From a virus, in the IMG/VR virus record IMGVR_UViG_3300045988_140636: a stretch of 64,000 nt of DNA; one strand, written 5' to 3'. Position numbers and translations under genes: made by a program. Position 1 is the stretch's first letter. Each line of letters opens with the position of its first letter. This document shows, piece after piece, positions 4,143-46,432 of the stretch. The notes under the pieces are model-generated. The model searched no databases. It had not been told where the DNA came from and was given only the letters and a program-made list of their open reading frames with translations.

Positions 4143-7064
4143 TTAACTTAATAAATTTATTGTACCACAAATACTGTCACCATTTTCATCTCTATAATCT
4201 ACATTAGGCTGAATAGACGTTACATCATTTTCTGAACCTGAGGGAATTTCAAGGGAAGAGCCATATATATCTTCATAAGCCTGTCTTAATGCATCCTCAC
4301 TAAAGGCCTCTCTGTACATTTCAGAATAAGCCAAATCCTCTTCTGTCATTTGAGGAGTTTCATAAGAAGTAACTGCTTCATCAATAACAGCATTAGGATT
4401 ATAACCTTTCTTGTTCTTATCAATTACAGAAGTCATTTCACTTGCTTCCTTACCATACTCATATTCAATAAAGCTATTCTTGAATCCAAGTGGCTCAATC
4501 CTTCTATAGACGGCTACATTAGACTCTTCAACTCTATCTGCAGTTAATCTGTAATAAATATAGTTACCTTTGTTTCTTCTTGCAATGAAATCAAAGAAGT
4601 CATATACAGGACCATCAGGAGTATCTATTCTCTTCTTGATGATTTTTTTATCCCCAAAATTAGCATTTTCATCTATTACAAATGTAACTTCATCCTTAAT
4701 CCCATTATCTTCACCTCTAAATAAAGTTGAAGCATCATCAGGAATTTCAGGAACAAGCTTTCTATTATCAAGATGATTGTAGACATACTGTTCAACAAAG
4801 TCACTATAGTCATCCTCGGATGTAAGGAGACTTCTTAGTGTTTCAATATACTCTGGAACTGCACTTCTTACAGCTACAGGAGCTAAATGAATAAAGGTAT
4901 TAGGACCAAATGCAAAGCCATTTCTGTAGAAGCTGTATCTGAATAAGTTAAGAGCAAGCTTTTGAGCTTCTGGGTTACTCATATATAATAGAGAAGTCCA
5001 GTCTCTCATATATCTTTCTCTTAGAGTGGGACTCAATTGACCAACATTCTTAAACACCACAGTGTCCACAGGATTTGTATCATTTGCCCTTATCACTCTA
5101 AGTCTCTTAATAAACTCAAGGTCAGCTATATCCTCATTCTCTGCAACCACTTTCTTGAAGTAAGTTGGGAAATTATTGATGAAGTCCCTTCTCTTGTCAG
5201 CAGATGTAATCATCTTTGTAGGATTACCATTCTCATCTACTGAACTCCAATCAGGTTCTGCACCAAAGAAATCTGTCTTAGACATTATATAAGCAAGCAA
5301 ATCATTGTAAATACTATTCATAGTCTTCACATTTAATCTACCTGTCTTTGTCATGTTTCTAAGAACATCAACTACCTCATCAAATGACTCAGTGAATTGA
5401 GGGAAATACTTGCTTAACATTCTCTCTGATTGCTTCAATCCAAGTGTGTAGAATGCCTGTAAGAAAGGCAATTTACTTGCAAGCAATTGCTCTCTTATGT
5501 TGTCAATGTCATCATTAAGAGAAATACTGTCACTGATTACATCTGCCCCTACAAGTGGAAACTTGTCATTCTCCTCCATATCTTTCAAGAAGTCTTGAAC
5601 CTTTTGGATTTTGAGCTTTGTATCAGCAATAGTTGGACCTGCTGCACCACCTTGAGTATCAGACCTTGTAGCTTGCACAAGCTGACCAAGGCTATCAGCA
5701 GTTCTCATTATTCTCTTAAATAGGAATCCTACAGCAACTTGTTTCTTATAGAACTCAACCTTACTGTAATCAGAAGTCTGATGGGCACTTGTGATGCCTG
5801 CCATTTCCTTTGCAATAAGGATGTTGTTGGCAAGGTCTTCAATTAGGAAGTCATTATTCTTATAGTTATCATAAGTAACTTCTTCCATCATTGCAGCCTT
5901 CTTCTTATATTCTACAAGGATTTCATCAATCACAGTGTCCTTACCTTTACCTTCTCTACTCTCCCTAAAATAAGTCTGGGTAATATCCATAACAATAGGT
6001 TGTGTCATAAGCAAACCTATCTCAATAGGGTTATAACCTAGTCTTGAAAGAAGCATAGAAGCATCAGCAGTGAATGTATTTTGGTTAATACCAGCCAACA
6101 CAGGATCTTTCACATTATCCACAGATGCAGCCAAGAAACCTGCATTATTCTTTGATATAAACTCTTTGTCTTCATTCATAATGTTATGTAAAGAAATAAG
6201 TCTCTTCCCATTCAATATAAATGAGCCATTCTCTACATCAAGGCCTAATTCAGTATGTTGCATTAAAGCATGATTAGCATTATGATTTGCATATATACCT
6301 ATCAGTTTTGCACCAGTCATATTCTGTTGATGAAGTTGTACTTGAGTTCTTGGAGAAATAGGGTCAAGTCTTTTCTTAGTTTTTTCAGTAAGCCTATCAA
6401 GTTCTTTTAAATCCATTGAAAGTAACTTAGTAATAATCGAGCCATCAGAAATATTTAAGTCTCTTTTTAAATCTGATTCATAGCTCGAACTAAGAATACT
6501 AATAATTCTTGCAGCTTTCTTTTGATAATCAAAACCACCTGGGTTAAGAATCTTAGAGGCTGTATCTGTATTCGTTAGAACTCCCCACATCATATCTATC
6601 ATCAAGTTGTTTCTTGCTTCAAGACTATTTTCTTGTGGAGTTTTATTAAAGTCATACTTTACTTTTCTAATCTTGTATGTATCAAGTCTGTACTTTTCCT
6701 TGTTTTCTTCAAACCATTTCTTAAACTCTACAGGTGCATTTGCAAAGTCCTCTAATAGATTTCCTGCCCTAAATAAGGTAGCTAATTCATCAAGTATTTC
6801 TTGCTCACCTTTAAAGTCCTGTTTTGCTCTTCTGAAGTCAAACTTATCTACCTTGAATTCAGGAAGCATAATATACATCTTATCCACATCAAAGTCAGAA
6901 CCTGACAGAGTGGTAATCTCAGCAGGAAGCATAATTGCAGAACCATTCTGTTGAGGTAAGAATCCTTTGATATACAAAGGAGCCATTGAGTACTTATCTT
7001 CAGTTGGTTGTTTTGTTATCTTACAGATGTTTATTCTGTAATTCTTTATGTTTCCATAAAGCAC
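4143..7064 (-). CDS. virion RNA polymerase-like protein, downstream exon (about 960 aa). The DFDVD motif sits at 6882..6896. The first 15-27 codons of the ORF-track model overlap the intron 3' region, so the true exon start is 6983-7019
   Basis: SGSDFDVDKMY (DxDxD metal-binding-type motif as in crAss-like/phi14:2-type RNAP) about 57 aa from ORF start; the ORF-track start is a GTG lying inside the intron S element. Confidence 0.5.
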   Translation of the reverse strand: MLYGNIKNYRINICKITKQPTEDKYSMAPLYIKGFLPQQNGSAIMLPAEITTLSGSDFDVDKMYIMLPEFKVDKFDFRRAKQDFKGEQEILDELATLFRAGNLLEDFANAPVEFKKWFEENKEKYRLDTYKIRKVKYDFNKTPQENSLEARNNLMIDMMWGVLTNTDTASKILNPGGFDYQKKAARIISILSSSYESDLKRDLNISDGSIITKLLSMDLKELDRLTEKTKKRLDPISPRTQVQLHQQNMTGAKLIGIYANHNANHALMQHTELGLDVENGSFILNGKRLISLHNIMNEDKEFISKNNAGFLAASVDNVKDPVLAGINQNTFTADASMLLSRLGYNPIEIGLLMTQPIVMDITQTYFRESREGKGKDTVIDEILVEYKKKAAMMEEVTYDNYKNNDFLIEDLANNILIAKEMAGITSAHQTSDYSKVEFYKKQVAVGFLFKRIMRTADSLGQLVQATRSDTQGGAAGPTIADTKLKIQKVQDFLKDMEENDKFPLVGADVISDSISLNDDIDNIREQLLASKLPFLQAFYTLGLKQSERMLSKYFPQFTESFDEVVDVLRNMTKTGRLNVKTMNSIYNDLLAYIMSKTDFFGAEPDWSSVDENGNPTKMITSADKRRDFINNFPTYFKKVVAENEDIADLEFIKRLRVIRANDTNPVDTVVFKNVGQLSPTLRERYMRDWTSLLYMSNPEAQKLALNLFRYSFYRNGFAFGPNTFIHLAPVAVRSAVPEYIETLRSLLTSEDDYSDFVEQYVYNHLDNRKLVPEIPDDASTLFRGEDNGIKDEVTFVIDENANFGDKKIIKKRIDTPDGPVYDFFDFIARRNKGNYIYYRLTADRVEESNVAVYRRIEPLGFKNSFIEYEYGKEASEMTSVIDKNKKGYNPNAVIDEAVTSYETPQMTEEDLAYSEMYREAFSEDALRQAYEDIYGSSLEIPSGSENDVTSIQPNVDYRDENGDSICGTINLLS

Positions 7065-7908
7065 GGACTATATCTTCATCCTATAAGGATGTTGGGCACT
7101 CGTGGGTATATTATATTCTATTTTCATAGTTTCAATACCTAGTCTCTGAACCTTTTATAACCATTTAAGTTATAACTTGGCTGCTGATTGTCCCTACTTA
7201 TTGAATTGTCACACACTTGCATATTCCCAGTAATAACCATATCTTTTCTGATGAGTTTTAATACCACTAATTATGTTAGCATCTTTCCTAATATTTCCTA
7301 ATTGTCTGGCAGCTTCTCTAATAGATTGGTAAGTATTTATAATATTACCATCATTATCTATTTGATTAATCTGTCTTTTATTAGGATTAGATTCTCTAAG
7401 TTTTAATCCTATTTTAACTGCTTTATTTCCATAACAGTTATTATAAGACTTAGTACACCATTCAAGATTTTCTACAGAATTATTAGTCTTATTTTCATCT
7501 TTGTGGTTTATACATTCCAAATTGTTAGGATTTGGAATAAAAGTATCAGCTACTATTCTATGTACTGCAATAGTTCTTTTCTTGTTAGTGTCATCGTATA
7601 ATTTCACTATAGGATAGCCACTACTATCAAGTACTGAGGATAAAGGTTTCAAAATGTTACCTTGTCTATAACTAAATACTTTACCACTTTTAGTTACTTT
7701 ATAGCTTGGATATTCTCCAAATCTACTTTTAATATTAAATAGTTCTTCTTCCATATAATGTTTTTGTGTAGATTTATATGTGCAAAGATACTATAAATAT
7801 TTGAATTATGCAAATTTTGTATCAATAATCTAACAGGATGTTCCAGCAATTCACCCAATTTATTATTCTTTAGTATTACTACTAAAGCGAGTCCCAATCT
7901 TTCGATTA
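7020..7908 (-). mobile_element. group I intron (minus strand) inside the RNAP gene, carrying an HNH homing endonuclease; the 3' splice site is approximate (candidates at 7020, 6993, 6984)
   Basis: Minus-strand P (GAATTGCTGGAAC, 7841-7853), Q (CAATCAGCAGCCAA, 7177-7190), R (GGTTCAGAGACT, 7141-7152) and S (AAGATATAGTCC, 7065-7076) elements in canonical order. P2 hairpin with GUAA loop at 7868-7887. P9 hairpin with GAAA tetraloop follows S. Exon ends in U (GTT) and can pair with GACUC (7889-7893) as P1 with a U-G wobble. Confidence 0.7.
7209..7754 (-). CDS. HNH (HNH_3/AP2-type) homing endonuclease with C-terminal NUMOD/IENR-like DNA-binding motif, intron-encoded
   Basis: YKVTKSGKVFS...GYPIVKL...AVHRIVADTF...ECINHKDENKTNNSVENLEW motif pattern; lies between the intron 5' region and the Q/R/S core. 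Confidence 0.75.
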   Translation of the reverse strand: MEEELFNIKSRFGEYPSYKVTKSGKVFSYRQGNILKPLSSVLDSSGYPIVKLYDDTNKKRTIAVHRIVADTFIPNPNNLECINHKDENKTNNSVENLEWCTKSYNNCYGNKAVKIGLKLRESNPNKRQINQIDNDGNIINTYQSIREAARQLGNIRKDANIISGIKTHQKRYGYYWEYASV

Positions 7909-10900
7909 AACTCTATAACCAATCAACTTCCTAAGATCTTTAGGAAGTTTGGTAATATCAAGTTCATGAGTTCCTTCCTTCATAAGGGGTTCATAGAACT
8001 CTCTTGAATAAGCTGGCATGTAACATTCAAGATATTTAATTCTCTTGTTCTCACCTTCCCCTTCAAATACCACATGAAGTTCATCAGTTAAGCCATAATC
8101 AGATACCTGAATCAATGCTCCACCTCTAATCTTCTGTTTGGTGATTTTGCTCTTGATGATACTATTAAGAAGAGTCTGTACTCTTTGAGATTGTACAGGA
8201 TCAAATAATGGAATATTGAACTGACCATTCTCATTAAGGGTACAGGCTCTGACCATATCAATTCCATATCTCTGATTACCTCTAATCTCTTCAAGTAGTG
8301 CCTCCTCTATCTTCTTAGGGTCTTTGAATATATCATTCACATTCTTGAATGCTTGCAAGATATTCTCAGTATTGATTGCATTATACAGGTCCAGCCATTC
8401 CTGCTTGGTCATTTTCTTACCATCAACCTCAATGATAGCATCTGATGCAATATCAGCAGTAATCAACTTTCTAATCTGAGTACCTACAAGCTGCACAGCA
8501 TCAATAGCATGTTCAGGAGTTGCAGTCTGAATACCATAATCTTCATAGCTTATTTTATGTACTACATTAGGATTCTCAATACCATTAGGCATAGTAGTAT
8601 TCTTCAATACCTCCTTTACTTGCCTGAAGTCACTAACCTCGTTAAGGTCAATAACACCTTGCTTCCCGACTTTAGTAGTAGATTCAAATTGAACTACATC
8701 AATATTGTTCTCTTCCATGAATTCATTAATAGCTTTAAGCTTGCTTGATTTACTAAGTGGACCAGCTATTAACTCATGCATGGCAAGTAATAAGAATTCA
8801 GAGTTCTTATGCTGTACAGGAGTCTTAATACCAGTATGACCTTCTACACCACTCATGTTGCTAATTTGGGTATATACATAAGGTTTCTTAGTCTGCCAGA
8901 TGATATTAAAGTCAGCAATGTTCCAAGTACCATTTTTGAAATTATTATATGCCTGCTCCATCTCATCTGTCCATTGGCCAGACATACCAAGTATTGCTCT
9001 ATAGGAGCTTAAACTTCTATAAGCCTGTGCATCTGCAACATTAACTGCCTTAAACTTGTTAATAATATTATCTCTATCCATCTTGGGCATTTCACCTTTC
9101 TTAACTCTCTCATCAAGAACTGTTTCAATATCACTCAGTACTGAAGATACAACCTCATCATCCTTCAAGTAGATAGTTCTTTCCCAATCTCTACCAATTC
9201 TTTCTCCCTTATAAGTAGCTTTGGTATTCATTCTAAGAGCTGGGGCATGAACCTCCTTATATCTCTTCTGAAAGTCCTCTACATTCTTATAGAAAGCTAA
9301 GTCGGTAGTAGTTAACTCAATAATTTGAGAAGTAGCTAATTTACTATTCCAGTAATACTCTCTTAATGCAGCTTTTGTATTATTCTTTACTATAAGGTTT
9401 TTGTTAATACTATCTGCTTCTTGTTTAGTAATATCTCCTCTTATAGACTTCTGATTTATTAAGTCTTTAATTTGTTGGAACAAATCTGTAGCAACTCTAT
9501 CATCTACTGGATTATTGTTGTTATAATCTTTCAATAACAACTCCATATCAGTAGTCCATAAAGTAGTACCAAGGATTTCTTTAGCTTTGATAAGAGACTT
9601 TGCAGTTCTTGAGTTCTGCTGTGATTGACCTGCAAAAGGTAAGTACTTATACTTTCCATTTGGTAACTCATCAAATAAACCAATTCTTGCCCAGTCTCTA
9701 TATGCCTCTTCAAAGCCATTATCCATAACTTCTCTAAGAGTATCTCTAATGAATTCCTTTAACTCAGCACCACTGCCTTCCCTGCTCAATCTACTCAATC
9801 TGTCAAGGAATGTTTCTCCATTATTATATCTAATGGAATTAAGTGCAGGTAAGAACTTAAACTCAGCTCCCCCTATACTCTTAATACTTCCATCCTTCTT
9901 CCTGGAAATATCATAGTTTGCTATAGGGGAGATGTTTGGATTATTATTCTGAAATTCCTCATCTCTTGCTCTGACAAGCATTATTCTGTCATATTCTTGA
10001 TTGACTAAATCAGTTAGTTTATCAAGGATAATATCATCATAAGTCAGCTTGTTCCCATTCTCATCATATTCAACTCCACTTACATATTTTCTGAATCTAA
10101 TGAATTCAGCAGAAGGAGAATCTGAAAGAATAGGGACATGATACCAGGCCCACTTCACACTTGTTCTACTATCTTCTGGGTCTCCCCAATATTCAGTAAG
10201 AAGTGCTAAGGTATAATCTAAGTCATCCCAGTTAGTGTAGTCCACTTTATCAGAGTTCAATACTACTTTATGATTTAGGCCTCTTCTCATTTCCTCAGAG
10301 TTAACCAGTTGCTCTAACCAGTCACTTCTCCATCTCCCATCTTTAAAGAACCACTCATATTGCTTAAACTCAGTATTAATAAATTCTTCAAATCTCTTCC
10401 TATCTCCTCTTACATTCTTAAGCTGTTTAATTAACTTTCCAAGATAATTTGGGGTGACATGAGAGTAATAAGACTTATCATTCTCTCTAACACTACTTTC
10501 AATAGCATCTTCAGTTACATTAGCCATCATATTTGCAATCGCACTATAAGCTGAACCAAATGTATTGATTAAGTCTCCTCTCTTCTCTATTCCATCTTCT
10601 CCTGTTTCTGACTTTATTTCCCCCTTCTTGATTCCTTTGAATATAATATTCAATTGAGGTAGTAGGACCATAATAGGGTCAGTAAACTTAGCTGTATCAG
10701 AAGTTCTAATATCAGTTAGTGCATTTCTTAATATAGAGGGATTGGCATCAATACCAATCATATTCAACAGCTTTAGTATAGTTTTCCAGATCCTATCATC
10801 CTCAAGAAGTTCTAATCTTGCTTCAGTATCCAAATTAGAGAATTTATTGTTTAGAGTTTCGACCCACTTAAGACCTTTTTCAGCATTTTCAATATTTATG

Positions 10901-12258
10901 TCCCCATTCTTCTCATATACACTATCATTATCAAGTTGCATACCATTCTCATAGTTATCTCTCCAAGCATCAAGAAGGTAATATACACCTTCAGGCTTGT
11001 TAATAGCAATGGTTTGCATCTTGAATGTACCATCAAGCATCGTCTTTTTCTTCTGGATCCAATAGGGTACGAAATCCTTTCTGAAATCTTGATAGAATTG
11101 AGAAAATAGCGTATCATCCTCCTCAAGCAATTCTCTTACTTGAGTCACCCAAGGTTTATTCCTTTCGAGCCCCTGTATAAGAGGGATCATATCTTCAGAA
11201 GTAATCATATCTCTCAACTTGTCGATAAGAGTTGCATGAACATAATCAGCATCTAAATACCTTAGATTACCCAAATCATCTTCCTTATACATTCCTTCAT
11301 AGTCAAGCCTGGGTATTTCCCTAATAACTTTTCTAACTGCTTGAGATAAAGATTCATGGGAACTAACTTGTCTAAAGTTAGTCATCCAGCCATCTTTAAA
11401 AGTCTCTTCCTTATTATAATCATCAGCTTGCTCATCAAGCTCACTGTATCCTTCAGGAGTATCATCATTTAAGTTAGCATCTTTAGGAGCACTATAGTTC
11501 AAGTCAATTCTAACTCCTTCTGTCATTACGAGTAATGTGCTAGCTTCTTCTGCCAAAGGTTTAAAGTTATCAACAACTTTTCTATAAGCTTGTTCCTTAT
11601 ATACAGCTTTTCTTCTTGCAGCATCCAATTTTTGTTCATCAGAGAATCTTTCAGATTCATCTATAACACCCTCATCAATTAATGTCTGCTCTCTTGCATT
11701 TATTGCCCCAAGTTCAATTTGTACTCTATTCTCTTCTGTATCGTTGATATAGGATTGAAATATATCCAATACTCTGTCAAATAATCCAGCAGGGGTGTAT
11801 TTCTTTATGGCATCAAATCTATTAAGGGAGCTTAACTCCATCTGTAATTGTAATCTTTCTTCATCAGAAGCTGTATCCATTCTCTTATTAAGAGAATCAT
11901 TCATTTCCTGTAGTGCTTTATCTACCTCATTACTAAAGAATCTAGCAATAAGGCTTACTCTATCTCTTCTAGTTCTTGGGTCAAAGTCTAAATCAACCTT
12001 AGCTTGCTCTTCAATAGAAGAGATCTTAGGAGTGTCAAATGAAGTAGATAATGCTTCATCAAGCATTTCTATTGTATCTGCACTTCTGAGTTTAAATCTG
12101 AAATCATTAAGTTCCTTTGCAGAAGGATACTCTTCAATAGATTTATTATTCTCTTTTTGCCATAAAGCTACAAGGCCCTTTACAGATTCTTCTGTCTCAC
12201 CTTGTAACTTCTCAGTTAAGTGCCTAATCTCTTTAGTTGCTACTAAACAATTATTCAT
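7909..12258 (-). CDS. virion RNA polymerase-like protein, upstream exon (1449 aa); the annotated TAA stop is the first three nt of the intron
   Basis: Giant ORF ending ...LIGYRV then TAA; GAGTT exon end pairs with the intron IGS; contiguous with the DFDVD-containing ORF across the intron. Confidence 0.5.
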
Positions 12259-18159: not shown

Positions 18160-18477
18160 TTAATGAACCCAGTAGGTTGGAAGAGGACCATTGTCATCAA
18201 GATATTCTCTATAGCTCTTTGGTAAGTCCTTTATTTTATAAGACTGATTAGTTCTGATATTTACTAGAACATCTTCTCCCATAGAGGCTATAACATCGCC
18301 CTTAACCATGATCTTCTCTCCATTAAATTCAAAGTCTCCTATACATAATTTATGTCTGGACACGTCTACATCCAACTTTACCCTGTGAACAAAATATGCT
18401 CCAGCTTTAACCATTATATCATATAGTACTTTAGCTATATCTTCCGCTATCTCTTCTGGAGCTTCACAGTTGATTTC
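18160..18477 (-). CDS. DNA polymerase I (family A), exon 2, encoding EINCEAPEE... to the C-terminus
   Basis: Aligns to the Pol I post-motif-C region (Taq HDELVLEAPKERAEAVARLAKEVMEG versus YDEINCEAPEEIAEDIAKVLYDIMVKAG); preceded by omega-G at 18478. Confidence 0.8.
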   Translation of the reverse strand, partial: EINCEAPEEIAEDIAKVLYDIMVKAGAYFVHRVKLDVDVSRHKLCIGDFEFNGEKIMVKGDVIASMGEDVLVNIRTNQSYKIKDLPKSYREYLDDNGPLPTYWVH

Positions 18478-19341
18478 CACATATGTTACGAATATGTCGA
18501 TTCCACATATTCTCTTTAGATTTCTCTAAAGGTCGGACTATATCTTATAAAAATCTCCACATATAGGCTAGTTGCCCATTGGTTAGATTTCTATCAGTGC
18601 TTTTCAGCTGCTCTTGCAGCTTACTCCATTTCTGGATAGTCTCTGAACTCCATAATTTATAAGAGTAACAATTAATAGGATATTTAGCTAATATAGAATG
18701 AATAATATAGGCTCCCTCATATTTATTTATTCCTAAATAATATAATGGTCTGCTATGATTATTATCTACTCTTACTTTAGCTTTTACTCCTATACTCTCA
18801 AAGAAAGGAATAAATACATTTTCTTGAATATTCAGAGAAAATTTCTGAGTATTAAGGTTGTAATATAAGTCCCTCTTATGAAGGCTCCCATCATCATAGA
18901 ACCACAATGCTAAACCTAACTCATCAAGATTACTCACTACTTCTTCTATAGGGAGTTCCTTGATTAATTTAAGTGAAAACCAAGCTCCTCCATAATAAGT
19001 ATATATGGGAGTTTGGTTATAACCATTGCTGTCTACATGATTTATTTTGCCTTTACCAATTAATTGTTTTTTATACTCTAAGTATTCCTTATGCTTACAA
19101 TTGGATGTATATATAGTACTACCACTATTAGTAGTAGATATGCAACCATCCCCTAATATAGCAGTAAGAAAAACCTGAGTTTGCTCTCTTGTAAAATCAT
19201 AAAGCTGCTTATTGCCTATTTCTCTTAAGTTACTTAAAATCATATTTAATACTTTTACTAGTTTATTATTACAATAATTCAGTGATTAAATCTTTAAGGG
19301 TTTCAAGCAATTAACACTGTTTTACTACAACAAAATTACTT
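18478..19341 (-). mobile_element. group I intron (864 nt) in the DNA polymerase gene with LAGLIDADG homing endonuclease
   Basis: Minus-strand P (AATTGCTTGAAAC, 19296-19308), R (GTTCAGAGACT, 18639-18649) and S (AAGATATAGTCC, 18535-18546). P9 CUUUAGAGAAAUCUAAAG and P9.1 hairpins. Exon 1 ends with U (GAT); omega-G precedes exon 2; the reading frame is continuous. Confidence 0.85.
18545..19243 (-). CDS. LAGLIDADG homing endonuclease (double-motif), intron-encoded
   Basis: LTAILGDGCIS and LALWFYDDGS motifs. Confidence 0.85.
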   Translation of the reverse strand: MILSNLREIGNKQLYDFTREQTQVFLTAILGDGCISTTNSGSTIYTSNCKHKEYLEYKKQLIGKGKINHVDSNGYNQTPIYTYYGGAWFSLKLIKELPIEEVVSNLDELGLALWFYDDGSLHKRDLYYNLNTQKFSLNIQENVFIPFFESIGVKAKVRVDNNHSRPLYYLGINKYEGAYIIHSILAKYPINCYSYKLWSSETIQKWSKLQEQLKSTDRNLTNGQLAYMWRFL

Positions 19342-21306
19342 ATCGTAGGGTGTTACAGTAATTAACACCTTGAATAATAAGTCATTACGTCTTAAGTATT
19401 CAAAAAAGTTTATCATACTCACCTTATAACACAATGCTCCAGTATGCTGTATAGGATAATTAACGGATTGCCTATCAGAATCAGACTTCCTCTTAAAGAA
19501 CTCTTTTACCATCTGCACCGTATCACATTTAGGAGCATCTATTTTCATTTCCCTATAGTAATCCCAAAACCTAGGTTCCTTAAACTTTACTTGTAGCTTC
19601 CTAAGATAGTTCCAATCATAGATATAGGCTCTATATCCAACTTTAGGATTAAGGTCTATATAGCCTTTACTGAACCAGTCCTTCTTTCTGAACTCAATAT
19701 ATCTTTTAAGACCATTAAAACCTTTCATATAATTGTCATATATCTCTTTAGCTCTTTTAGCTGTAAGCCCGAAGTTTCTCATAATGGTGTTGTCATTACC
19801 AGCGTAATTAAAAGCAAACTCATAACCTTTAGCCTCACTTCTCAACTTATGATACTGCTTCTTAACTTCTTTGGCAGGCATATCTTTAGGAATTTCAGGA
19901 AATACTATCTTCGCAGTTAGTGTATGTAAGTCCTTCTCACCATAGGTAAGCTCTCTAATCATCTCCTTATCATCAGCTACATCAGCCATGATAAATGATT
20001 CTTGCCCTGAGTAATCGGCACTTATCCATTTATTGCCACTTTCAGCTATGAAACAAGCCCTAGTCCTAGCATCAGCAGGCATATTAAGCATATTTACGTA
20101 CTCAACCTTAGCTGACTTGTCCTTACCTCCTGAGCTTATTCTTGCTGTATCAGTACCCAATGAGTTAAAGTTGGTATATAGCCTTCCAGTATCCCTATCT
20201 ATCTGTTTAAGTACATTTGCCCCATAGGTACTGCACAGCTTCTTCATTTCCTTATACCTTATATATAAGGGAATAAGACCACACTTATCCTTCTGAGGAG
20301 CCAATACCTTAGCTCCTATACTATCCTTATCCTCTCCTTCATCTTTGTCAAGAGAAGTTGTATCAACCCCATATTTCTTAAATAAAGGAATAACTTGTTT
20401 GGAGCTATTCCAATTAAGAACCACTTGGGGTTCAGTATTAAAACCTGAGAATAAACTACCTTGCCTATCTATTTTAATATACTTTGAATTGGGCTCATGC
20501 TCTATAAGCCATCTGTCCATTTCACCTTTAATGCTATCAAGAATAGATTGATCATGTTTCATTTTTTTCTGCCATTTATCTGTATCCATCTTTATGCCAC
20601 AATAGCACATATAAGCAATAGGAAGTATAGCCCTGTTCTCATACTCCATAGCAGTAAGAAGTCCTTGCTTCTCTAATTGTTTCAATTGTAATTCTTGTAT
20701 TTTCTCAAGATATTTTACATCATTGGCAGCATAGACTATGACATCTTCTGTAAGACCTTTATAGATGATTTGCCCTCTTATGGATTTATCGAGCTCTACT
20801 CCAAGATACATTTCACCTAGCTTTTTCAGATTCATATATAGAACATATTTAGCTTTTGAACTTTTTTTACTAGGGTCTGCCGGTACATAGTCATATCTAG
20901 GACATTGTATCTTATCCCATACTTCTGGACTTAATACAGTAGGGTAACCTAACCACATTAGTTTCTCTGCTAGAAACAAGTCATAGACATTACGAGGAAC
21001 TATATGGTATTTATAAAGCCACTGTAGATCAAATTTGGCATTATGAAATAAGAAAAGCCTATCAGATTCAAGATAGTTTTCATATAAAGTAATATCTGTA
21101 GTAAGACAATCTATTACTACTTGAAAATCAAAGCACCCTAATTGCAATGACAAGAGCTTATCCTTATGACAACTTAATCCACTAGTCTCGGTATCAACTC
21201 CTACAATTCTAAGAGGTTTAAGTAGGGATAGACTCTCGTCTACCCCTATTATTTTGTACTTCTCAGGTTCAAATAATTCTATATTTTTCGTAACTACATA
21301 TATCAT
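19342..21306 (-). CDS. DNA polymerase I (family A) with 3'-5' exonuclease domain, exon 1
   Basis: Exo I VGVDTETSGL, Exo III YAANDVKYL, motif A DYSGQESF, motif B RSEAKGYEFAFNYAG, NYPIQHTG; terminates at ...TPYD immediately before the intron. Confidence 0.85.
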
Positions 21307-22880: not shown

Positions 22881-25800
22881 TTAATCACATCTTGAATAAC
22901 CACAATTCATGCAGTGTGTACAACCTCCATCTCTAACTAGGTTTCCACCGCACTCTGGGCACACTTCTCCTTTAATCTCTGAAGATTTAATATACTTGGC
23001 TAATATTCTACACATGGCAGAACTGAAGGAAGTTATATTATCATTTACTTTTTTGGCTGTTTTAGTAATAAATTCAATGCTAACTCCATGTCTTAATAGC
23101 ATTGATGAATATAAAGTAGCGGCTTTCTCCTCTATATTAGTATTAGCCAACTGTAAATCAGATAATTGAATAAACTTACTATCAAAGCTGTAGTGCATTT
23201 TACCTTTCTTGATAATCTTTCCTTTATGGGGAGGAATATCAATAGGTCTTAGAGGTCTGAATGCAAAAATTTCATAAGGTTTCCCTTCTAACAATCCTAC
23301 AAGAACGATAAATTGTTCCCCTTTCACTTTGACTTGATGATAGTCAGCTTCAAGCTCTTTAGGTCTCTTAGGAGCTTGTCTATTACTTATAGTACTAGGC
23401 TTTTCTATCTTATTCAAGACTCCTTCCCTACAACCATCTCTATATATAGTCTGTCCTTTATTTCCTGTTCTCCATGCTTCTATATAAATATCAGCAATCT
23501 CCTCTTCAGTAATCTCTTTTGGAAGATTTATTGTAGAACTAATACTATGAGTGATATATTTCTGTACAATACCTTGCAACTTGATTCTTTGCTTCCAATC
23601 TATCTCTGGTGCTGTAGATCCATAATAAGGACTCTTCTTAAAAGCCTCTTTAAGATATTCCATATCCTGTAACTTCTCCAAATATTCAGGATCATTGAAG
23701 TTCCCTTTGAATGTAGAATAGCATAACCATTTGGCTAAATTAGGATGAACCACTGTGAATAAAGTGTATTTTTCTCCTTTTACATCAGTATAATCTACTT
23801 TATCATTAGGAGACATACATTTTCTCTTTCTTCTATAGAATGGTAAAAAGACAGGCTCTATTCCAGAGGAACATTGAGCCATAATACTCACAGTGCCTGT
23901 GGGTGCAACAGTCGACCAACTTATATTTCTTCGGCCTAAGCATTTCATTTTAATAGCCTCTGTGTGGAAATTATCACTAAGGAATTCATACCATTTGTTC
24001 TTGCCACGATGGGGTATAACAGTATATTCCTTATGTGAATCCCAAGCTGGAAATGCTCCTCTCTCAATAGTCATATCTATTTGAGAGTCCAATTGACCCT
24101 TAAATATAATCCTCATCAGATCTTCAATTTTTTGAATACCTTCATCAGAATCATATTTCAGCCCTAACATAGCTATGGCATCTGCCAATCCAGTAAAACC
24201 AAGACCAGCTCTTCTACCTCTTCTTGTAGTCTCTCTTATTCTACTCCATAGATTAAATTCTACAAAGTCAGATTCACCGTTAGCTATATTTATAATTCTG
24301 TCTATGGCTTCCAATTCAAGATCTACAAGATCATCTGCTAATCTCATAGCTTCGTAGGAATGCTTGTAGAGTAAGTCTTTATCAATATAAGATTCTTCCG
24401 TAAATGGATCTTTTATATAGCTTGTCAGATTAATATGTATCAATCGGCAACTATCAAAGGGACCCATTGGTATTTCTCCACAGTTATGAGCAACCATATT
24501 ATTAGCAATTAAACAATGTGTTCCAGGTACTTGTATATCATATACATCTACTTGTTCACCTTCTTCAATGCTAACTATACAATTATCCCACTGATTTCTA
24601 CACTTAGTAGCTAAGTAATCAGGTAATGGCTCTGTATTTTTCCAAGCTGGGGTTTTTTCACTTGGGACAAACCTCCCATCTTCTCCTCTGACCTGGTGAT
24701 TTTGTGGATTCTGTTCTAATGCTGTAAGTCTAGCATGTTTAGAGTGATCAATAGATTGAAGGTTATTAATTACATTATTAAATGGATTTGCATCTAAGTG
24801 ATGAATATCCTTATCAATCTGCTGACCATATACTCCCTCATAAACAAGTCTATGCTCCATTACATAGTCCCTATTTCCCTCGGTAGTAAGTTTCACTCCG
24901 ACATATCTCCTTCCTCTTCTGCTCCTTAGGATATGAGCAATTCTATCTCCTATCTTAAGATTTTGAGCTTCTATAAATCCCACTCCTTGAACGAACATTT
25001 TATGGTTAGGCGTAACCATTATAGAAGATCCATTTCTTAGGACAATCTTTAATGTTTTAGCATTATCTCTTGTCTTAAAAGCTGCTGTAGAGGGAACTAT
25101 ACAAATATGCCCTTCCTCATTCATGCTATATACATAAGTAGGTTCAGTTATATCAGCAATTCTCTTTCTGCCTTCTACAGTTTCAATGAGAGTATCAGGA
25201 TGAAAGCAAGGATTTGTCCCGATCATCTTAAATTCTTCATAAACACCATCAGGAGCATAATCATGCATAGCATTTTCAAACATTATTCCAGGTTCAGCTG
25301 TATTATATGCACAATGCATTAGAGTATTCCATAACTTTCTTGCTTTAATCTTTTTTAAACAAACTCTTTTTTCAGCAGGAAGGGCTTCCCCAAAGCAGAG
25401 TAATTTATCATATTCCATCTCTTCTAATTGAGAAGGATCATAATTGGCATGTACAGGCCATCTAAGCAAATAATCTTCATCATTGATTACTGCTCTCATG
25501 AACTCATCTGTGACTTTCACACTTATATTGGCTCCAGTTACTTTGGTAAGATCTTGCTTTTTAGTAATGAACTCTTCAATGTCAGGGTGATTTATACTAA
25601 TACTTAACATTAAAGCTCCACGTCTACCATTCTGTGCTACCTCATTGGTGATATCAGAACATACATCCATAAAGCTTGCTGCACCAGTAGATGATTTAGC
25701 TGCATTATTCACTGCAGCTCCTCTTGGTCTTAGATTAGATAAATCATAACCTACTCCTCCTCTCCTTTTCATGAGCTGGACTTGCTGGCTTCTGGTATTC

Positions 25801-26165
25801 ATTATACTAGAGTAACTATCTACTGGAGAACCTATTACAAAACAGTTAGATAAAGAGACCAATTTTCCTGTACCTAATCCGGACATAACAGAACCTCCAG
25901 GGATTATATATTTAAAGTTCTTGAACAGTTCATATATATCCTCCTCTTTTAGCTCTTTCCTTTCATTCCCATAAGGGGATAATACTAACCTGCCTTTTTG
26001 ACTCATAGGAGTATTATTCGCATATTCTCTCTCTATTCTACCAAATTCCTTAGCGAGTCTCCTATGCATATCATCAGGAGTAGTTTCTCCTTCCATAGCG
26101 TACTTGTTTTTCCATGTGGAAGCCGCTAATTCATCTCCATTAAAATAATTCAATAAATCATTCAT
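22881..26165 (-). CDS. ribonucleotide reductase catalytic subunit (monomeric class II-like; C-terminal CxxC...CxxC tail) interrupted by an intein
   Basis: LSNCFV first-Cys region and NP/CGEI active-site loop split by the intein. C-terminal CPECGG...CTHCMNCG. No beta-subunit ORF seen nearby. Confidence 0.7.
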   Translation of the reverse strand: MNDLLNYFNGDELAASTWKNKYAMEGETTPDDMHRRLAKEFGRIEREYANNTPMSQKGRLVLSPYGNERKELKEEDIYELFKNFKYIIPGGSVMSGLGTGKLVSLSNCFVIGSPVDSYSSIMNTRSQQVQLMKRRGGVGYDLSNLRPRGAAVNNAAKSSTGAASFMDVCSDITNEVAQNGRRGALMLSISINHPDIEEFITKKQDLTKVTGANISVKVTDEFMRAVINDEDYLLRWPVHANYDPSQLEEMEYDKLLCFGEALPAEKRVCLKKIKARKLWNTLMHCAYNTAEPGIMFENAMHDYAPDGVYEEFKMIGTNPCFHPDTLIETVEGRKRIADITEPTYVYSMNEEGHICIVPSTAAFKTRDNAKTLKIVLRNGSSIMVTPNHKMFVQGVGFIEAQNLKIGDRIAHILRSRRGRRYVGVKLTTEGNRDYVMEHRLVYEGVYGQQIDKDIHHLDANPFNNVINNLQSIDHSKHARLTALEQNPQNHQVRGEDGRFVPSEKTPAWKNTEPLPDYLATKCRNQWDNCIVSIEEGEQVDVYDIQVPGTHCLIANNMVAHNCGEIPMGPFDSCRLIHINLTSYIKDPFTEESYIDKDLLYKHSYEAMRLADDLVDLELEAIDRIINIANGESDFVEFNLWSRIRETTRRGRRAGLGFTGLADAIAMLGLKYDSDEGIQKIEDLMRIIFKGQLDSQIDMTIERGAFPAWDSHKEYTVIPHRGKNKWYEFLSDNFHTEAIKMKCLGRRNISWSTVAPTGTVSIMAQCSSGIEPVFLPFYRRKRKCMSPNDKVDYTDVKGEKYTLFTVVHPNLAKWLCYSTFKGNFNDPEYLEKLQDMEYLKEAFKKSPYYGSTAPEIDWKQRIKLQGIVQKYITHSISSTINLPKEITEEEIADIYIEAWRTGNKGQTIYRDGCREGVLNKIEKPSTISNRQAPKRPKELEADYHQVKVKGEQFIVLVGLLEGKPYEIFAFRPLRPIDIPPHKGKIIKKGKMHYSFDSKFIQLSDLQLANTNIEEKAATLYSSMLLRHGVSIEFITKTAKKVNDNITSFSSAMCRILAKYIKSSEIKGEVCPECGGNLVRDGGCTHCMNCGYSRCD
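24483..25208 (-). mobile_element. intein (242 aa) with HNH endonuclease domain inserted at the RNR NPC|GE active site
   Basis: Starts CFHPDTLIETVEG (block A, Cys1), ends NMVAHN followed by +1 Cys (CGEI); internal HNH motif HRLV...DIHHLDANPFNNVINNL...H. Confidence 0.75.
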
Positions 26166-27964: not shown

Positions 27965-28539
27965 TTAAAGTCAAAACATTCTTGCGTTAGCAAATTTTGA
28001 AACTCTTCCAATAATCCAAGAGCAATTTGGGCTTCTCTGGCAGATCTGAAAGCAGCGAAGTTTTTGTAATCCTTGATACATTCTTTTTTCAGGTTATAAA
28101 CTTTCATACTAATTATATCTGCCATGTATATGTTAGGGCTATTACTAATATGATCTTCATAATTGGCATCTAGATCGATAGCTATTTCCCTTAAGAACAT
28201 AGTATATAGTGAAGCTGGACAAATATTAAGTAAGGTAAAAAGGAATTCTATAGAATTCTCTTCATTTAGACTGGATTTTTGGCATATTTTCCTAAGATAA
28301 TACTCTACATCTTTTTCAGATTTAAGGGGTCCTTCTTCTAGATCTTCTCTCTCTACTATTAAACCTTTTTTAATTAGTTTACTTATGCTATTAGGAAGTA
28401 CAATAAATTCTTGAATTACAGAAAAGTAATCTCCCCTACGTACTCTTCTTATAACGTCACCCATTTTTACTTCTTCACCTGCTTTAGTGTAATACCTTTT
28501 CTTATTCATATTTTTCTGTTTAATGTCAATATTCTTCAT
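27961..28539 (-). CDS. hypothetical protein
   Basis: ORF in operon spacing. Confidence 0.35.
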   Translation of the reverse strand: MKNIDIKQKNMNKKRYYTKAGEEVKMGDVIRRVRRGDYFSVIQEFIVLPNSISKLIKKGLIVEREDLEEGPLKSEKDVEYYLRKICQKSSLNEENSIEFLFTLLNICPASLYTMFLREIAIDLDANYEDHISNSPNIYMADIISMKVYNLKKECIKDYKNFAAFRSAREAQIALGLLEEFQNLLTQECFDFK

Positions 28540-29017
28540 ACCATTTTATGGAATACCCATAAATATCTCTTAATTTTTTATCTATTTCATCAAATAGATA
28601 ATGAGGCATCTTTGTCCCACTCCTTGCAAAATATGCAGGGTGTTCAATCTTCAAAACATGATTGAAATTCTTATTGATATACGGATCAAATGTTCCAGCT
28701 TGTTTACCGAATAATACATATACAATAGAACACAAATTTTCCGAAAGATTCTTTAATAATTTAGATATGAATGGTCTCCATAACATAACATGGGAGCCTA
28801 TTTTATTCATCTCCACAGTAAGAGCAGAGTTAATCATTAATATACCCTGCTTAGCCCAGTTCTCTAAAGTTTGGTCAAAGATAATGCTATCATGTGGAAT
28901 TTCCAAATTTATCACTGCTTCTTTTAATATTTTTAGAGAAGGCGACAAATCTTCTTCTGAAACTTCTTTTCTATTTCCAAACAGTACTCCAGTAGCTACT
29001 CCCTTTTGTGGATAAGG
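28526..29017 (-). CDS. ung: uracil-DNA glycosylase family 1, exon 2 (from PYPQKG...)
   Basis: Continues the E. coli Ung alignment after GQD (PYHGPGQAHG versus PYPQKGVATG); GILMINSALTV; C-terminal HPAYFARSG (HPSPLS-like); omega-G at 29018. Confidence 0.8.
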   Translation of the reverse strand, partial: PYPQKGVATGVLFGNRKEVSEEDLSPSLKILKEAVINLEIPHDSIIFDQTLENWAKQGILMINSALTVEMNKIGSHVMLWRPFISKLLKNLSENLCSIVYVLFGKQAGTFDPYINKNFNHVLKIEHPAYFARSGTKMPHYLFDEIDKKLRDIYGYSIKWYEEY

Positions 29018-29947
29018 CAATTTGTTACCCCAAAGGCTCTTTATCCTTTGGTTCTATATATTACTATATAGTTCGGACTATATCTTCATTGTTTCCAATG
29101 CAGGGCACTCGTGTCAGGTTTATTATTTGAGCTATTCACCTGTTAGTCTCTGAACCTTCTACATACTTTTATGCTCTTCTGTAGCTTGGCTGCTGATTGA
29201 CTCATTAAGTTGTTCCAGCAATTCACCCTGTTTATCCAGAACCCTTCTTTTACTATAAGTAATTAGTTTATATTGCATGGATGGAATAATATAATCTTTA
29301 ATTAGTTCTACAAACTTAGGAAAATCCTTAGCTTGTAGATACATACTATTATCATGTTTGCCTACAGTAAAATGTAAGTCAAATTTATTTAATAATATGT
29401 TAGCTAACAAAAGCTGTTCTTCAAGAGTAAATGAACAAGTAGATAAGGTACATGAATTTTTAGTTACATAACCATCATCCATATACCATATAGCCAAACC
29501 TAAAGCATCTATATCTTTTACAAATTCTTCAAAGATTCTTTTATGTCCATTAGAGTCATAATATTTTAATCTTATATTTGTAAAAATAGGATGTAATCTA
29601 GATTTAAATCTATATCCAACTAATTCATGTAAATATCTTTTATTATTTACATGATATTCAACTATAGGAGATACTAAGTTATATTTATTTAGTATCTCCC
29701 ATTTATACTCAAGATATTCTTTTTGTTTTTCAGAGTGCGCTATACTAAGACACATATTTTTAGCTGTTTTTCCTACTGAACAAAAACATCCATCACCTAA
29801 CAAACTTCCTATAAGAAGTTGTCTTAGATCATTTTCTACTTTAATTTCCTTGTAATTCTTCATACCATTAAGAATTTGGCACAAAGATAAGGTATTTGAC
29901 CTAATATTGCAATATTCTAGTTAAATTATTTATAGATTATTACCAAA
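29018..29947 (-). mobile_element. group I intron (930 nt) in the UDG gene with LAGLIDADG homing endonuclease
   Basis: Minus-strand Q (CAATCAGCAGCCAA, 29184-29197), R (GGTTCAGAGACT, 29145-29156) and S (AAGATATAGTCC, 29073-29084); P9 CUAUAUAGUAAUAUAUAG; ends GGUAACAAAUUG|; exon 1 ends in U (GAT). Confidence 0.85.
29159..29884 (-). CDS. LAGLIDADG homing endonuclease (double-motif), intron-encoded
   Basis: IGSLLGDGCFC and LAIWYMDDGY motifs; paralogous to 18545..19243. Confidence 0.85.
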   Translation of the reverse strand: MCQILNGMKNYKEIKVENDLRQLLIGSLLGDGCFCSVGKTAKNMCLSIAHSEKQKEYLEYKWEILNKYNLVSPIVEYHVNNKRYLHELVGYRFKSRLHPIFTNIRLKYYDSNGHKRIFEEFVKDIDALGLAIWYMDDGYVTKNSCTLSTCSFTLEEQLLLANILLNKFDLHFTVGKHDNSMYLQAKDFPKFVELIKDYIIPSMQYKLITYSKRRVLDKQGELLEQLNESISSQATEEHKSM

Positions 29948-45050: not shown

Positions 45051-45613
45051 ATGGAGTTATACAAACAGAAAAGAAAACTAGTAACTGTCACTTGTGATTA
45101 CTGTAGAGAGAGAGTTTCTCTAAACCAGAATCAGAGTATAAAAGAAATATTAAATTAGGCAGACATAACTTTTGTTCAAGGTCTTGTTGCGGTAAATACA
45201 TTGCATCTCTCAACAAGCCTCTTACTCAAGCTCAAATAGGGTCTAGAAACTCTATAAGAAACTATAGTAGTAATAGAAATGATGAGTACACACCATTTAG
45301 AGAAATTCTAAGAACCGTAAGAAACAGGTGTAAAGAATTTAATCTAGATTTACCTTATCTTGTGGAACTTTGGAACTCACAAAATGGTATTTGTCCTTAT
45401 ACAAGACTTAAACTTGTTTTACCTACTTGGAATACTAATCCTGACATAAGATATAGAGCTTCACTTGACAGAATAGATTCTTCTAAAGGATATATTAAAG
45501 GTAACGTGCAATTTGTTGCGACTCCTATCAATTATCTTAAAGGAACTATGTCAGATGAGACTACTAAAGCTTATCTCAGAGAAATTGCTGCTTCTATTTT
45601 CATAGAAGATTAG
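45051..45613 (+). pseudogene. free-standing HNH_3-type homing endonuclease gene disrupted by a frameshift at a (GA)n run
   Basis: Frame 0 MELYKQKRKLVTVTCDYCRE... stops at 45156. Frame 2 (open from 45107) continues ...KRNIKLGRHNFCSRSCCGKY...ASLDRIDSSKGYIKGNVQFV. GAGAGAGAG lies at 45105-45113. The CxxC...FCSRSC zinc-ribbon plus HNH core is a known architecture. Confidence 0.55.
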
Positions 45614-45700
45614 ACTATATCATCACCTCAATAATTTGAGGGTAGGACGCTCAAGCTGGTAATTAAGGAGACTGTACTCCTCCAGTAGTCGTTGCACTTT

Positions 45701-45766
45701 CATTAGGTGTACCTAATGCTTAGCTCAGGATTGGCATGATAAAAGCTAGTTCTAAGCTTTTATTTT
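45701..45766 (+). terminator. tandem hairpins plus T-run downstream of the HNH gene
   Basis: CATTAGGT/ACCTAATG (45701-45718) and GCTTAG...CTAAGC (45718-45757) followed by TTTTATTTT. Confidence 0.45.
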
Positions 45767-46432
45767 AGCGTTCCCTGAGTTCATCCTATTTTGTAAATAC
45801 TATCACTAGTAAGTGGGTCCGAACTTAAACCCTCGTCTTACTAACTTTTAATAAAAGAATTTCACATGTTTACCACTTTGATATGTAGTAGGTTCTCTAC
45901 TGGGGTCAACCAGTGGTTGACAGATCCACCACTCTATTTAATCTAATAGAGAAATCTTCATAAGGAGTTATAAGAATTAAAAATGAAAGGGTCACACCCT
46001 CTGCATACACCAGACAGCTTGCTCCTGACTAATAAACAAACTATATAATATTATAGGTGTATTGAAAGTAGGTATAGCCTTATTAACTTCCTTCTTGACC
46101 CTATTATTCACCTTTCTGTTTCCAAGCAGGTGAGGCTCAGCCTACAAGTTAGGCGGCAGCTCTATAAGTGTTGCCAGTTAAAGTTTTGATGTCTTTCCAT
46201 CAGTCTTTACATGTTCTCTTACCAAATAATTAGCAATCAAAACCAAATCATGCCCCATATTATAGTGGAAGAAGTTGTTAATACTGATTTTTTGCTGTAT
46301 GCAACATCTTCTTCCACCTATAGTCAATCTCTTTTCATTTTTCTTACTTTCTTTCCAGATTTCATTTTCTCTGTCTTTTTCACCTGGAGTTCTTCATTAC
46401 TGCAATCATTAATATTTATTCTTTTCATTTTT

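Follow-up and report, generated by a model that had tools for sequence, protein, structure and literature searches.

Interruption of a family A DNA polymerase gene

The window analysed here is a 64,000-nucleotide stretch of viral DNA (IMG/VR record IMGVR_UViG_3300045988_140636), and its positions 18160 to 21306 hold a family A DNA polymerase (PolA) gene that is interrupted by an 864-nt insert with an open reading frame (ORF) of its own. Positions are those of the whole 64-kb window throughout, and all polymerase and intron features lie on its minus strand. The region shares 96.3% identity with the uncultured phage cr128_1 (MT774392 / NC_055885; Crassvirales, Steigviridae, Mahlunavirus rarus), the nearest genome in public records. 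The host is a crAss-like (Steigviridae-related) gut phage, and the interrupted gene is its single family A DNA polymerase gene. The main features of the locus are:

19342..21306, minus strand: PolA exon 1, 655 codons, with Pfam DNA_pol_A_exo1 and DNA_pol_A, collinear with crAss001 gp64
18478..19341, minus strand: group I intron, 864 nt, IA2-like, with its omega-G end at 18478, recognised by covariation and a partial RF00028 match
18545..19243, minus strand: endonuclease ORF, 232 amino acids, predicted two-motif LAGLIDADG enzyme, I-SceI-like, with its stop UAA (18547..18545) in J8/7
18160..18477, minus strand: PolA exon 2, 105 codons and a stop, opening with the motif C Glu (GAA)

An earlier note on this DNA, made from the sequence, had reported that the 656-amino-acid PolA ORF stops after TPYD and that the C-terminal part of the polymerase reappears in a 106-amino-acid ORF. 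Coordinates and sequences are as it gave them: the longer ORF (19336..21306, minus strand) ends in ...VTPYDK* and the shorter one (18160..18480, minus strand) begins with (V)EINCEAPEE. The insert between the exons (19341..18478) is 864 nt long, base 19342 is a U and base 18478 is a G, and joining 19342 to 18477 preserves the frame, giving a 760-amino-acid polymerase that reads ...LITVTPYD|EINCEAPE.... The ligated exons are predicted to read ...ACACCCUACGAU joined to GAAAUCAACUGUG... (19342|18477), and the predicted junction peptide of the spliced polymerase is ...VTPYDEINCEAPEEIAEDIAK. Exon 1 contains the 3'-5' exonuclease domain, polymerase motifs A and B and, as its last codon, the Asp of motif C, while exon 2 ends in a conserved ...LPTYWVH (family pattern ...LPxYW(I/V)H). 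Motif C had been described as missing from the 656-amino-acid ORF; this is right for its Glu, which lies in exon 2, but not for its Asp, the motif being split between the two exons.

The junction 19342|18477 had been proposed from the rules of group I splicing (a U at the end of exon 1, omega-G at the end of the insert, frame kept), and it is borne out by collinearity with the uninterrupted Pol I of the cultured phage crAss001 (gp64, 706 amino acids). The spliced product is 72% identical to this protein over 698 residues, and the alignment contains two one-residue gaps only, both far upstream of the junction. Across the junction the two proteins are the same (residues LFKVLITVTPYDEINCEAPE), all 20 junction residues LFKVLITVTPYD|EINCEAPE matching. 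Moving the junction by one base in either direction turns YDEI into YEEI or YDKI, as read from the sequence, which leaves GAU|GAA as the one junction that agrees with the crAss001 homologue. A profile hidden Markov model search of the 760-amino-acid product, suggested in the earlier note, agrees with this placement: exon 1 by itself covers positions 30-333 of the 381 in Pfam DNA_pol_A (144.9 bits), whereas the spliced product covers positions 30-374 (166.4 bits), a gain of 21.5 bits. In an alignment to solved structures, Bst Pol I '...V--HDElilEAPkE...' stands opposite '...tpYDEinceAPeE...' and the junction falls at H-D|E of motif C; the intron therefore parts Asp from Glu within this motif. 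The two residues correspond to D882 and E883 of E. coli Pol I, which are established catalytic carboxylates. The family A motif C, (H/Y)-D-E, is restored as YDE in the spliced product.

Purifying selection acts on exon 2 where the intron is present: among intron-bearing lineages, its ratio of non-synonymous to synonymous substitution rates (dN/dS) is 0.13-0.30. Since crAss-like phages encode only one DNA polymerase (PMC7886860), the selection on exon 2 and its conserved C-terminus mean that the interrupted gene must give an active enzyme.

In the public annotation of cr128_1 (MT774392.1 30639-33785; RefSeq NC_055885) the locus appears as a 656-amino-acid 'DNA polymerase I' and two hypothetical proteins of 232 and 84 amino acids, and the intron is not annotated in that record. 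Exon 2 also carries an in-frame insertion of 52-53 amino acids (LCIGDFEFNGEKIMVKGDVIASMGEDVLVNIRTNQSYKIKDLPKSYREYLDDN; window 18190..18348, minus strand) just ahead of ...GPLPTYWVH, which is found in the window, cr128_1 and viral contig L008 and is absent from crAss001 and contigs L003, L009 and L017. A Pfam search with this C-terminal insertion gave no match. The opening residues (C-I-G-D...) are faintly reminiscent of the N-terminus of an intein, yet the insertion is much too short for one and has no C-terminal HN plus nucleophile.

Group I architecture of the insert

The earlier note had placed group I P, R and S elements in an 864-nt gap; the length is correct and P (AAUUGCUUGAAA), Q (AAUAAGCAGC), R (GUUCAGAGACUA) and S (AAGAUAUAGUCC) were all located, each close to the Rfam consensus, Q being the P4 3' strand region, inside the ORF. 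The paired (P) and joining (J) regions of the fold are laid out as follows:

19325..19348, minus strand: P1, exon CUACGAU (19348..19342) with guide GUUGUAG (19331..19325)
19314..19319, minus strand: P3 5' strand CAGUGU, whose partner GCACUG (18600..18595) lies 714 nt downstream, across the ORF
19297..19309, minus strand: P element, with P4 5' strand UGCUUG (19309..19304), J4/5 and P5 5' strand CCU (19299..19297)
19244..19291, minus strand: P5a/P5b extension stem-loop, whose 3' strand AUUAAAU ends directly before the endonuclease AUG
19194..19217, minus strand: P5 3' strand AGG (19217..19215), P4 3' strand UAAGCA (19211..19206) and P6 5' strand GCUUUAUGAUUU (19205..19194), within the ORF
18636..18658, minus strand: P6 3' strand AAAUUAUGGAGU, J6/7 and P7 5' strand GACUAU, with the R element GUUCAGAGACUA
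18606..18635, minus strand: P7.1 (CCA-GAAA-UGG), G-U-A linker and P7.2 (AGCUGC-AAGA-GCAGCU)
18549..18600, minus strand: P3 3' strand GCACUG (18600..18595) and P8 (18592..18549)
18536..18548, minus strand: J8/7 and P7 3' strand, with the S element AAGAUAUAGUC
18478..18531, minus strand: P9, P9.1 and the 3' tail GUAACAUAUGUG, which ends in omega-G 18478

The loop of P1 is 10 nt long and holds an in-frame stop UAA (19338..19336) as well as the P10 partner UAAUUUU (19338..19332). U19342, the final base of exon 1, makes the U.G pair at the 5' splice site, and the first five nucleotides of exon 2, GAAAU, make P10 with the guide region. P8 consists of an outer stem AGAAAUCU/AGAUUUUU and an inner stem AUGGGC/GCCUAU; P9 is CUUUAGA-GAAA-UCUAAAG (18531..18514) and P9.1 is GAAUAUGU-GGAAUCG-ACAUAUUC (18512..18490). 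GNRA loops had been assigned to both of the latter hairpins, which is true of P9 (GAAA) but not of P9.1, whose loop is a heptanucleotide; the other GNRA loop is in P7.1, (U)CCA-GAAA-UGG(A), which is connected to P7.2 via G-U-A. P2 is absent and J1/3 is UAAAA. From P7.1-GUA-P7.2 and the missing P2, the intron has the hallmarks of subgroup IA2 and may be called IA2-like; this is the combination that places the polymerase introns of Pf-WMP3, PhiI and W31 in IA2 (PMC3428280).

The intron and its ORF occur at the identical site in MT835492.1 and 14 viral contigs. Covariation was scored on a close set of 15 copies, with 85 model pairs (P1, P3-P6, P7 as a pseudoknot, P7.1, P7.2, P8, P9, P9.1 and P10), against controls in which helix partners were slid by 1-3 columns and against 500 shuffles. 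A broad, core-only set comprised 11 diverse copies and 69 pairs, P8 not being scored. In the close set 97.4% of cells are paired, compared with 36-44% in the slid controls, and 20 pairs show compensatory double changes, compared with 0-3; none of the 500 shuffles reaches the observed values. The broad set gives 95.8% of cells paired (34-42% in the slid controls) and compensatory changes at 31 of 69 pairs (2-11 in the slid controls).

P1 is fully paired in each of the 11 diverse copies, three of its exon-guide pairs covary and the splice-site U.G is present in 11/11. The guide thus changes with the exon, as seen in the combinations CUACGAU/GUUGUAG, CCAUGAU/GUCAUGG, GCACGAU/GUUGUGC, CCACGAU/GUUGUGG and ACACGAU/GUUGUGU, and each copy examined has omega-G just ahead of its Glu codon. 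The long-range P3 is 100% paired with compensatory changes at three of its six pairs, and P4 is also 100% paired, with one compensatory pair in the broad set. P5 has two compensatory pairs. Further ones in the broad set are found in P6 (four), P7.2 (three), P9 (five of seven) and P9.1 (all eight); the close set adds five in the outer stem of P8 and an exchange of A-U for G-C in P10. For the P5a/P5b extension, RNAalifold gave 17 pairs, five of them compensated; the single-sequence fold of this extension is thermodynamically no better than shuffles (z = 0.31; AT-rich RNA). Compensatory changes of this kind imply selection on the RNA fold and, as evidence drawn from aligned sequences, we regard them as decisive for the folding of the insert as a group I intron (P1, P3-P9.1, P10).

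Endonuclease ORF and distribution of the intron

The 232-amino-acid ORF matches LAGLIDADG_2 (PF03161) with an E-value of 4.2e-11 and 43.5 bits against a cut-off of 25, its residues 28-174 aligning to profile positions 7-162 of 168. The two LAGLIDADG motifs read ...ILGDGCI... and ...LALWFYDDGSL..., and G31, D32, G33, Y116, D117 and D118 are invariant in 28 homologues. A PDB sequence search returned nothing meaningful and a fold search was needed. The AlphaFold2 model (predicted local distance difference test score, pLDDT, 90.6) shows two copies of an alpha-beta-beta-alpha-beta-beta-alpha fold, for which Foldseek ranked I-SceI on top (E 2e-8, TM ~0.65), followed by I-WcaI and I-DmoI, with the bI3 maturase also among the matches. 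The double LAGLIDADG ORF of the earlier note is thus upheld by profile, motifs and fold, and the protein is predicted to be a two-motif I-SceI-like LAGLIDADG enzyme. That makes it a candidate for a new meganuclease of the I-SceI type, one whose target can be predicted. The ORF is intact in all copies, its dN/dS is 0.10-0.32 and the endonuclease is under purifying selection. In contigs L086 (~3096-3101) and L089, two diverged copies, the endonuclease ORF has an in-frame TGA where others have TGG (Trp), in the P6 3' strand (…GGUUUGAAGUUCAGAG…); translated with table 11, the gene does not yield the query protein, which is consistent with TGA-recoded crAss-like phages.

The ORF had been described as nested in the intron, but it is not confined to a peripheral loop: it starts beside P5a and reads through the core to J8/7. 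Its AUG (19243) directly follows the P5a 3' strand, and it spans P5', P4' (the Q element), P6, the ~535-nt P6 loop, P6', J6/7, P7, P7.1, P7.2, P3' and P8, so that ~160 nt of the ORF are at the same time part of the ribozyme core, in both of its strands. The R element AGU UCA GAG ACU AUC codes for S-S-E-T-I, and the bases of P6', J6/7 and the P7 5' strand encode ...LWSSETI.... The block ...KLWSSETIQKWSKLQ..., coded by P6', J6/7, P7, P7.1 and P7.2, shows the highest conservation within the protein family and is modelled as confident C-terminal helices. In the 5' overlap of ORF and core, the proportion of synonymous differences (pS) is 0-0.27 against ~0.65 in the P6 loop, a difference that is suggestive but comes from only 4-8 synonymous sites; in the 3' overlap, a comparison of synonymous constraint showed no clear effect. 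ORFs that overlap an intron core are known (PMC3984707; Pf-WMP3, PMC3428280), and the overlap here is unusually long, making it a well-documented natural case of long dual coding for a ribozyme core and a protein. Since several core helices have both of their strands inside the ORF, and since its AUG lies right next to P5a, endonuclease translation and ribozyme folding probably exclude each other on one RNA molecule. A more far-reaching idea, to which we give only a small chance, is that endonuclease and ribozyme form an obligately interlocked unit, in which either the C-terminus would bind its own coding RNA (maturase-type autoregulation) or a switch between translation and folding would set polymerase dosage. 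If true, this switch would set the polymerase dosage during infection.

The endonuclease has 347 database relatives, nearly all of them PF03161, and the distant ones that were located (47-61% identity) lie in six of six cases directly after a truncated PolA, at the same insertion site (junctions VHD|EYLLETP, VHD|EINLEAP, APYD|EINCEAP, AHD|EINVECP, VHD|EANIEAP and AHD|EFDIEAP). Within the viral collection the PolA intron is present in 17 contigs, and the uninterrupted TPYDEINCEAP allele in 47. When the window is compared with contig L008, the exons are 93-96% identical and the intron 81%; with L003 the exons are 53-60% identical and the intron 76%, and with L017 the values are ~52% and 72%. This patchy presence and the discordance between intron and exons, which runs in both directions, indicate that the intron has probably spread by homing. 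Between the window and L008, identity drops to 82% over the final ~100 nt of exon 1, from 94-100% over the 700 nt upstream, which looks like a co-conversion tract in this single pair. The intron-less crAss001 site differs from the ligated exons of the window by synonymous differences only, and the gp64 site ...ACTCCTTATGAT|GAAATTAATTGTGAAGC... is the obvious candidate for the endonuclease target.

A scan with the pattern of the 5' end, as a search for an ORF-less copy of the intron, gave only ORF-bearing PolA copies and an unrelated GC-rich intron. Contigs L018 (918-1500), L024 and L033 carry a different, GC-richer group I intron, in another gene and with a different ORF. The L018-type intron and the L003-type PolA intron have an identical 23-nt 5' end (AAAUAAUCUUGUCGUAGUAAAAC; P1 loop, guide and J1/3) and the same exon heptamer CUACGAU upstream, which could reflect common ancestry or the transfer of a 5' module between introns.

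Interpretation and relation to known introns

It is very probable that the insert is a mobile, self-splicing group I intron of IA2 type in PolA, located between the Asp and Glu codons of motif C. Its splicing would follow the steps of established group I chemistry. The whole gene would be transcribed as one pre-mRNA, on which the ribosome translating exon 1 would halt at the in-frame UAA two codons into the intron, in the P1 loop; this early stop should keep ribosomes off the ribozyme core, and in the other copies the exon 1 frame likewise ends within nine codons of the intron. The guide GUUGUAG would pair with the last seven nucleotides of exon 1 (P1, with U.G where cleavage occurs) and the AUUUU next to it with the first five of exon 2 (P10), while the core would be built from P3-P8 and P4-P6, P7 providing the guanosine pocket. 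Exogenous guanosine would then attack after U19342, the freed 3'-OH of exon 1 would attack after omega-G 18478, and ligation of the exons would give the 760-amino-acid polymerase with an intact Y-D-E motif C. During co-infection, the endonuclease would most likely cut intron-less alleles near ...CCUUAUGAU|GAAAUUAAUUG..., and repair would copy the intron in.

Several points weigh against this reading. In a targeted 1.4-kb scan, Rfam RF00028 (Intron_gpI) reached 35.1 bits (E 6.4e-07), below the gathering score of 50, and whole-window scans, both at gathering score and in E-value mode, left the gap without an RF00028 match. In the targeted match, R (GUUCAGAGACUA), S (AAGAUAUAGUCC) and P9 are correctly placed and the 5' half is forced onto ORF sequence; this shortfall is a detection limit, due to a model unable to bridge the ~535-nt ORF segment in P6, and not a failed structural feature. 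P10 is weakly paired in some diverged copies (85.5% paired), and P7 is invariant and P4 varies at one pair only; both helices agree with the fold but rest on conservation and not on covariation. The fold model was derived from the same sequences that were used to score it, and the broad alignment was pieced together around conserved motif anchors, a procedure that works in the model's favour; slid controls and compensatory counts mitigate this bias but do not remove it. With so much of the core overlapped by the ORF, folding could suffer and splicing could come to depend on a protein.

Protein dependence is the substance of one alternative, that of a group I intron which does not splice autonomously and, with its ORF taking up much of the core, needs its own LAGLIDADG protein as a maturase, or a host chaperone, to splice efficiently in vivo, the nuclease activity having perhaps been lost. 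LAGLIDADG maturases exist, a bacterial LAGLIDADG protein whose activity resembles that of a maturase is cited in PMC3984707, and the bI3 maturase is among the fold matches; the overlap of the ORF with P5', P4', P6, P7, P7.1, P7.2, P3' and P8 is also in keeping with such a role. The 40 core-encoded C-terminal amino acids, being the most conserved part of the protein family, would fit as well, but constraint on the RNA alone can explain this block. Moreover, the acidic residues of both motifs (LGDG, YDDG) are kept in all 28 aligned homologues, as expected of an active nuclease, patchy distribution and intron/exon discordance point to ongoing mobility at the DNA level, and a related IA2 intron of a phage DNA polymerase gene with a core-overlapping ORF, that of Pf-WMP3, self-splices in vitro (PMC3428280). 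We thus consider a maturase-dependent intron rather unlikely.

Far less probable is the absence of any splicing, in which case a free-standing endonuclease cassette would have split the gene and the 656-amino-acid and ~100-amino-acid polypeptides would associate into an active enzyme, an arrangement known for some split genes of phages. Both fragments are indeed open, GenBank gives three separate coding sequences in cr128_1 and a downstream start is possible at GTG 18480 or a later ATG; yet this GTG takes in omega-G and lacks conservation as a start (L017, for instance, has AUUG|GAA). Such an arrangement would also break motif C between its neighbouring catalytic residues, Asp and Glu, and it leaves a complete, covarying group I fold with a guide pairing that tracks the exon without purpose in an unspliced spacer, while 11/11 diverged copies retain the U that ends exon 1, the G that ends the insert and an unbroken frame across the junction. 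Decay of the polymerase into a pseudogene, with the intron as a dead relic, is the least credible explanation: nothing specific speaks for it beyond the sub-threshold Rfam score. Against it stand purifying selection on exon 2 as well as on the endonuclease ORF, the selection on the RNA fold that compensatory changes reveal, an architecture preserved between lineages with exons of only ~52% identity, and the single DNA polymerase gene of crAss-like phages (PMC7886860). An intein was also considered for the insert and rejected, given the in-frame UAA at 19338..19336, two codons past the junction, and the endonuclease's own AUG.

The self-splicing intron that we favour is a previously unannotated case of a well-known element type, and it is not alone in the window, where Rfam finds three other group I introns at gathering score. 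The one at 29054..29300 (minus strand; RF00028, 80.9 bits) lies beside a 241-amino-acid LAGLIDADG_2 ORF (29159..29884, minus strand; 2.7e-33), which overlaps its 3' core. The ORF downstream of it (28526..29020, minus strand) matches positions 41-140 only of the 141 in the uracil-DNA glycosylase (UDG) superfamily profile, and it seems that this intron splits a uracil-DNA glycosylase-like gene in like manner. The intron at 7044..7287 (minus strand; 54.4 bits), with an HNH_3 / I-HmuI NUMOD-like ORF (7209..7754, minus strand), sits between ORFs of 1450 (7906..12258) and 973 (4143..7064) amino acids, possibly the two exons of a single giant gene. The third, at 45591..45860 (minus strand), is the window's highest-scoring intron in Rfam (85.8 bits), and its own strand shows no obvious endonuclease ORF; an 83-amino-acid plus-strand ORF without a Pfam match (45362..45613) overlaps its 3' end.

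The ribonucleotide reductase of the window (22881..26165, minus strand; 1094 amino acids) contains an intein at about residues 318-561 (Intein_splicing 1.2e-15, HNH_3; CFHPDT...VAHN|C). The corresponding coding sequence of cr128_1 is only 2568 nt long, apparently without the intein, which looks like a presence/absence polymorphism between near-identical phages. With the PolA intron, three further introns and an intein in 64 kb, crAss001-type phages can be heavily colonised by self-splicing elements. Rfam also identifies two tRNA genes, at 46802..46873 (minus strand, 60.2 bits) and 50573..50644 (plus strand, 48.9 bits). Suppressor tRNAs are known in crAss-like phages.

As a matter of annotation, the cr128_1 record shows a truncated polymerase and two hypothetical proteins in place of one 760-amino-acid polymerase and one homing endonuclease. 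The same element is present in many gut-phage contigs of 90-180 kb and is missed by standard Rfam scanning, and it can distort gene calling, polymerase phylogenies and analyses of 'DNA polymerase switching' in crAss-like phages.

As for the setting, crAss-like phages (Yutin et al. 2021, PMC7886860) and the Bacteroides jumbo 'Jug' phages (PMC12880540) are likewise phages of gut Bacteroidota, whose core genes are fragmented by introns and inteins and in which LAGLIDADG intron ORFs have been noted (PMC7886860, PMC12880540); splicing of the Jug phage introns was confirmed by metatranscriptomes (PMC12880540). The genes named in the running text of these two papers are the major capsid protein, PolB, primase, ATP_43b, TerL and nrdD, for the most part from the Delta and Zeta groups, and that text, as distinct from the image of Supplementary Figure 12 in PMC7886860, contains no description that we found of an intron in PolA motif C. 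Elsewhere, introns in phage PolA genes are recorded at E. coli positions 674 (SPO1, SP82, Bastille, Pf-WMP3), 676 (phiL7) and 881 (PhiI, W31), and those listed are all of subgroup IA2 and all encode HNH enzymes (PMC3428280). LAGLIDADG enzymes are not listed among the families most common in phage introns (PMC3984707). The present intron adds a LAGLIDADG case to the phage polymerase introns, with an insertion exactly between two catalytic residues.

Like this intron, those of Pf-WMP3, SPO1, SP82 and Bastille (with I-PfoP3I, I-HmuI and I-HmuII as well as I-BasI) are IA2 introns at a catalytically important, conserved site of phage PolA, and they self-splice. The Pf-WMP3 intron further shares with it the absence of P2, the P7.1-GUA-P7.2 arrangement, an early stop codon and an ORF that extends into P6, P7, P7.1 and P7.2 (PMC3428280). 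The two differ in site, E. coli position 674 in the fingers subdomain for the Pf-WMP3 group versus 882/883 in palm motif C here, and in enzyme: the Pf-WMP3 group encodes nicking HNH endonucleases, whereas the window intron encodes a LAGLIDADG protein whose ORF overlaps the core further, through P3' and P8. The introns of the T7-like phages PhiI and W31 (Bonocora & Shub 2004, as summarised in PMC3428280) are likewise IA2 introns in the motif C region of a family A DNA polymerase, with an endonuclease ORF associated with P6. Compared by reported position only, their site 881 and the site 882/883 of the window intron adjoin or possibly coincide. Their ORF is an HNH enzyme in P6a, as opposed to a two-motif LAGLIDADG ORF running from beside P5a to J8/7, and their hosts are podophages of Enterobacteria, unrelated to the Bacteroides crAss-like phage of the window. 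The nearest counterparts of the enzyme itself are the monomeric I-SceI and I-WcaI (PF03161), which have a similar size (235 amino acids against 232), two motifs and a matching fold. They share only ~20% sequence identity with it and come from yeast mitochondrial rRNA genes instead of a protein-coding phage gene; unlike either of them, the enzyme of the window has C-terminal helices that are encoded by the ribozyme core.

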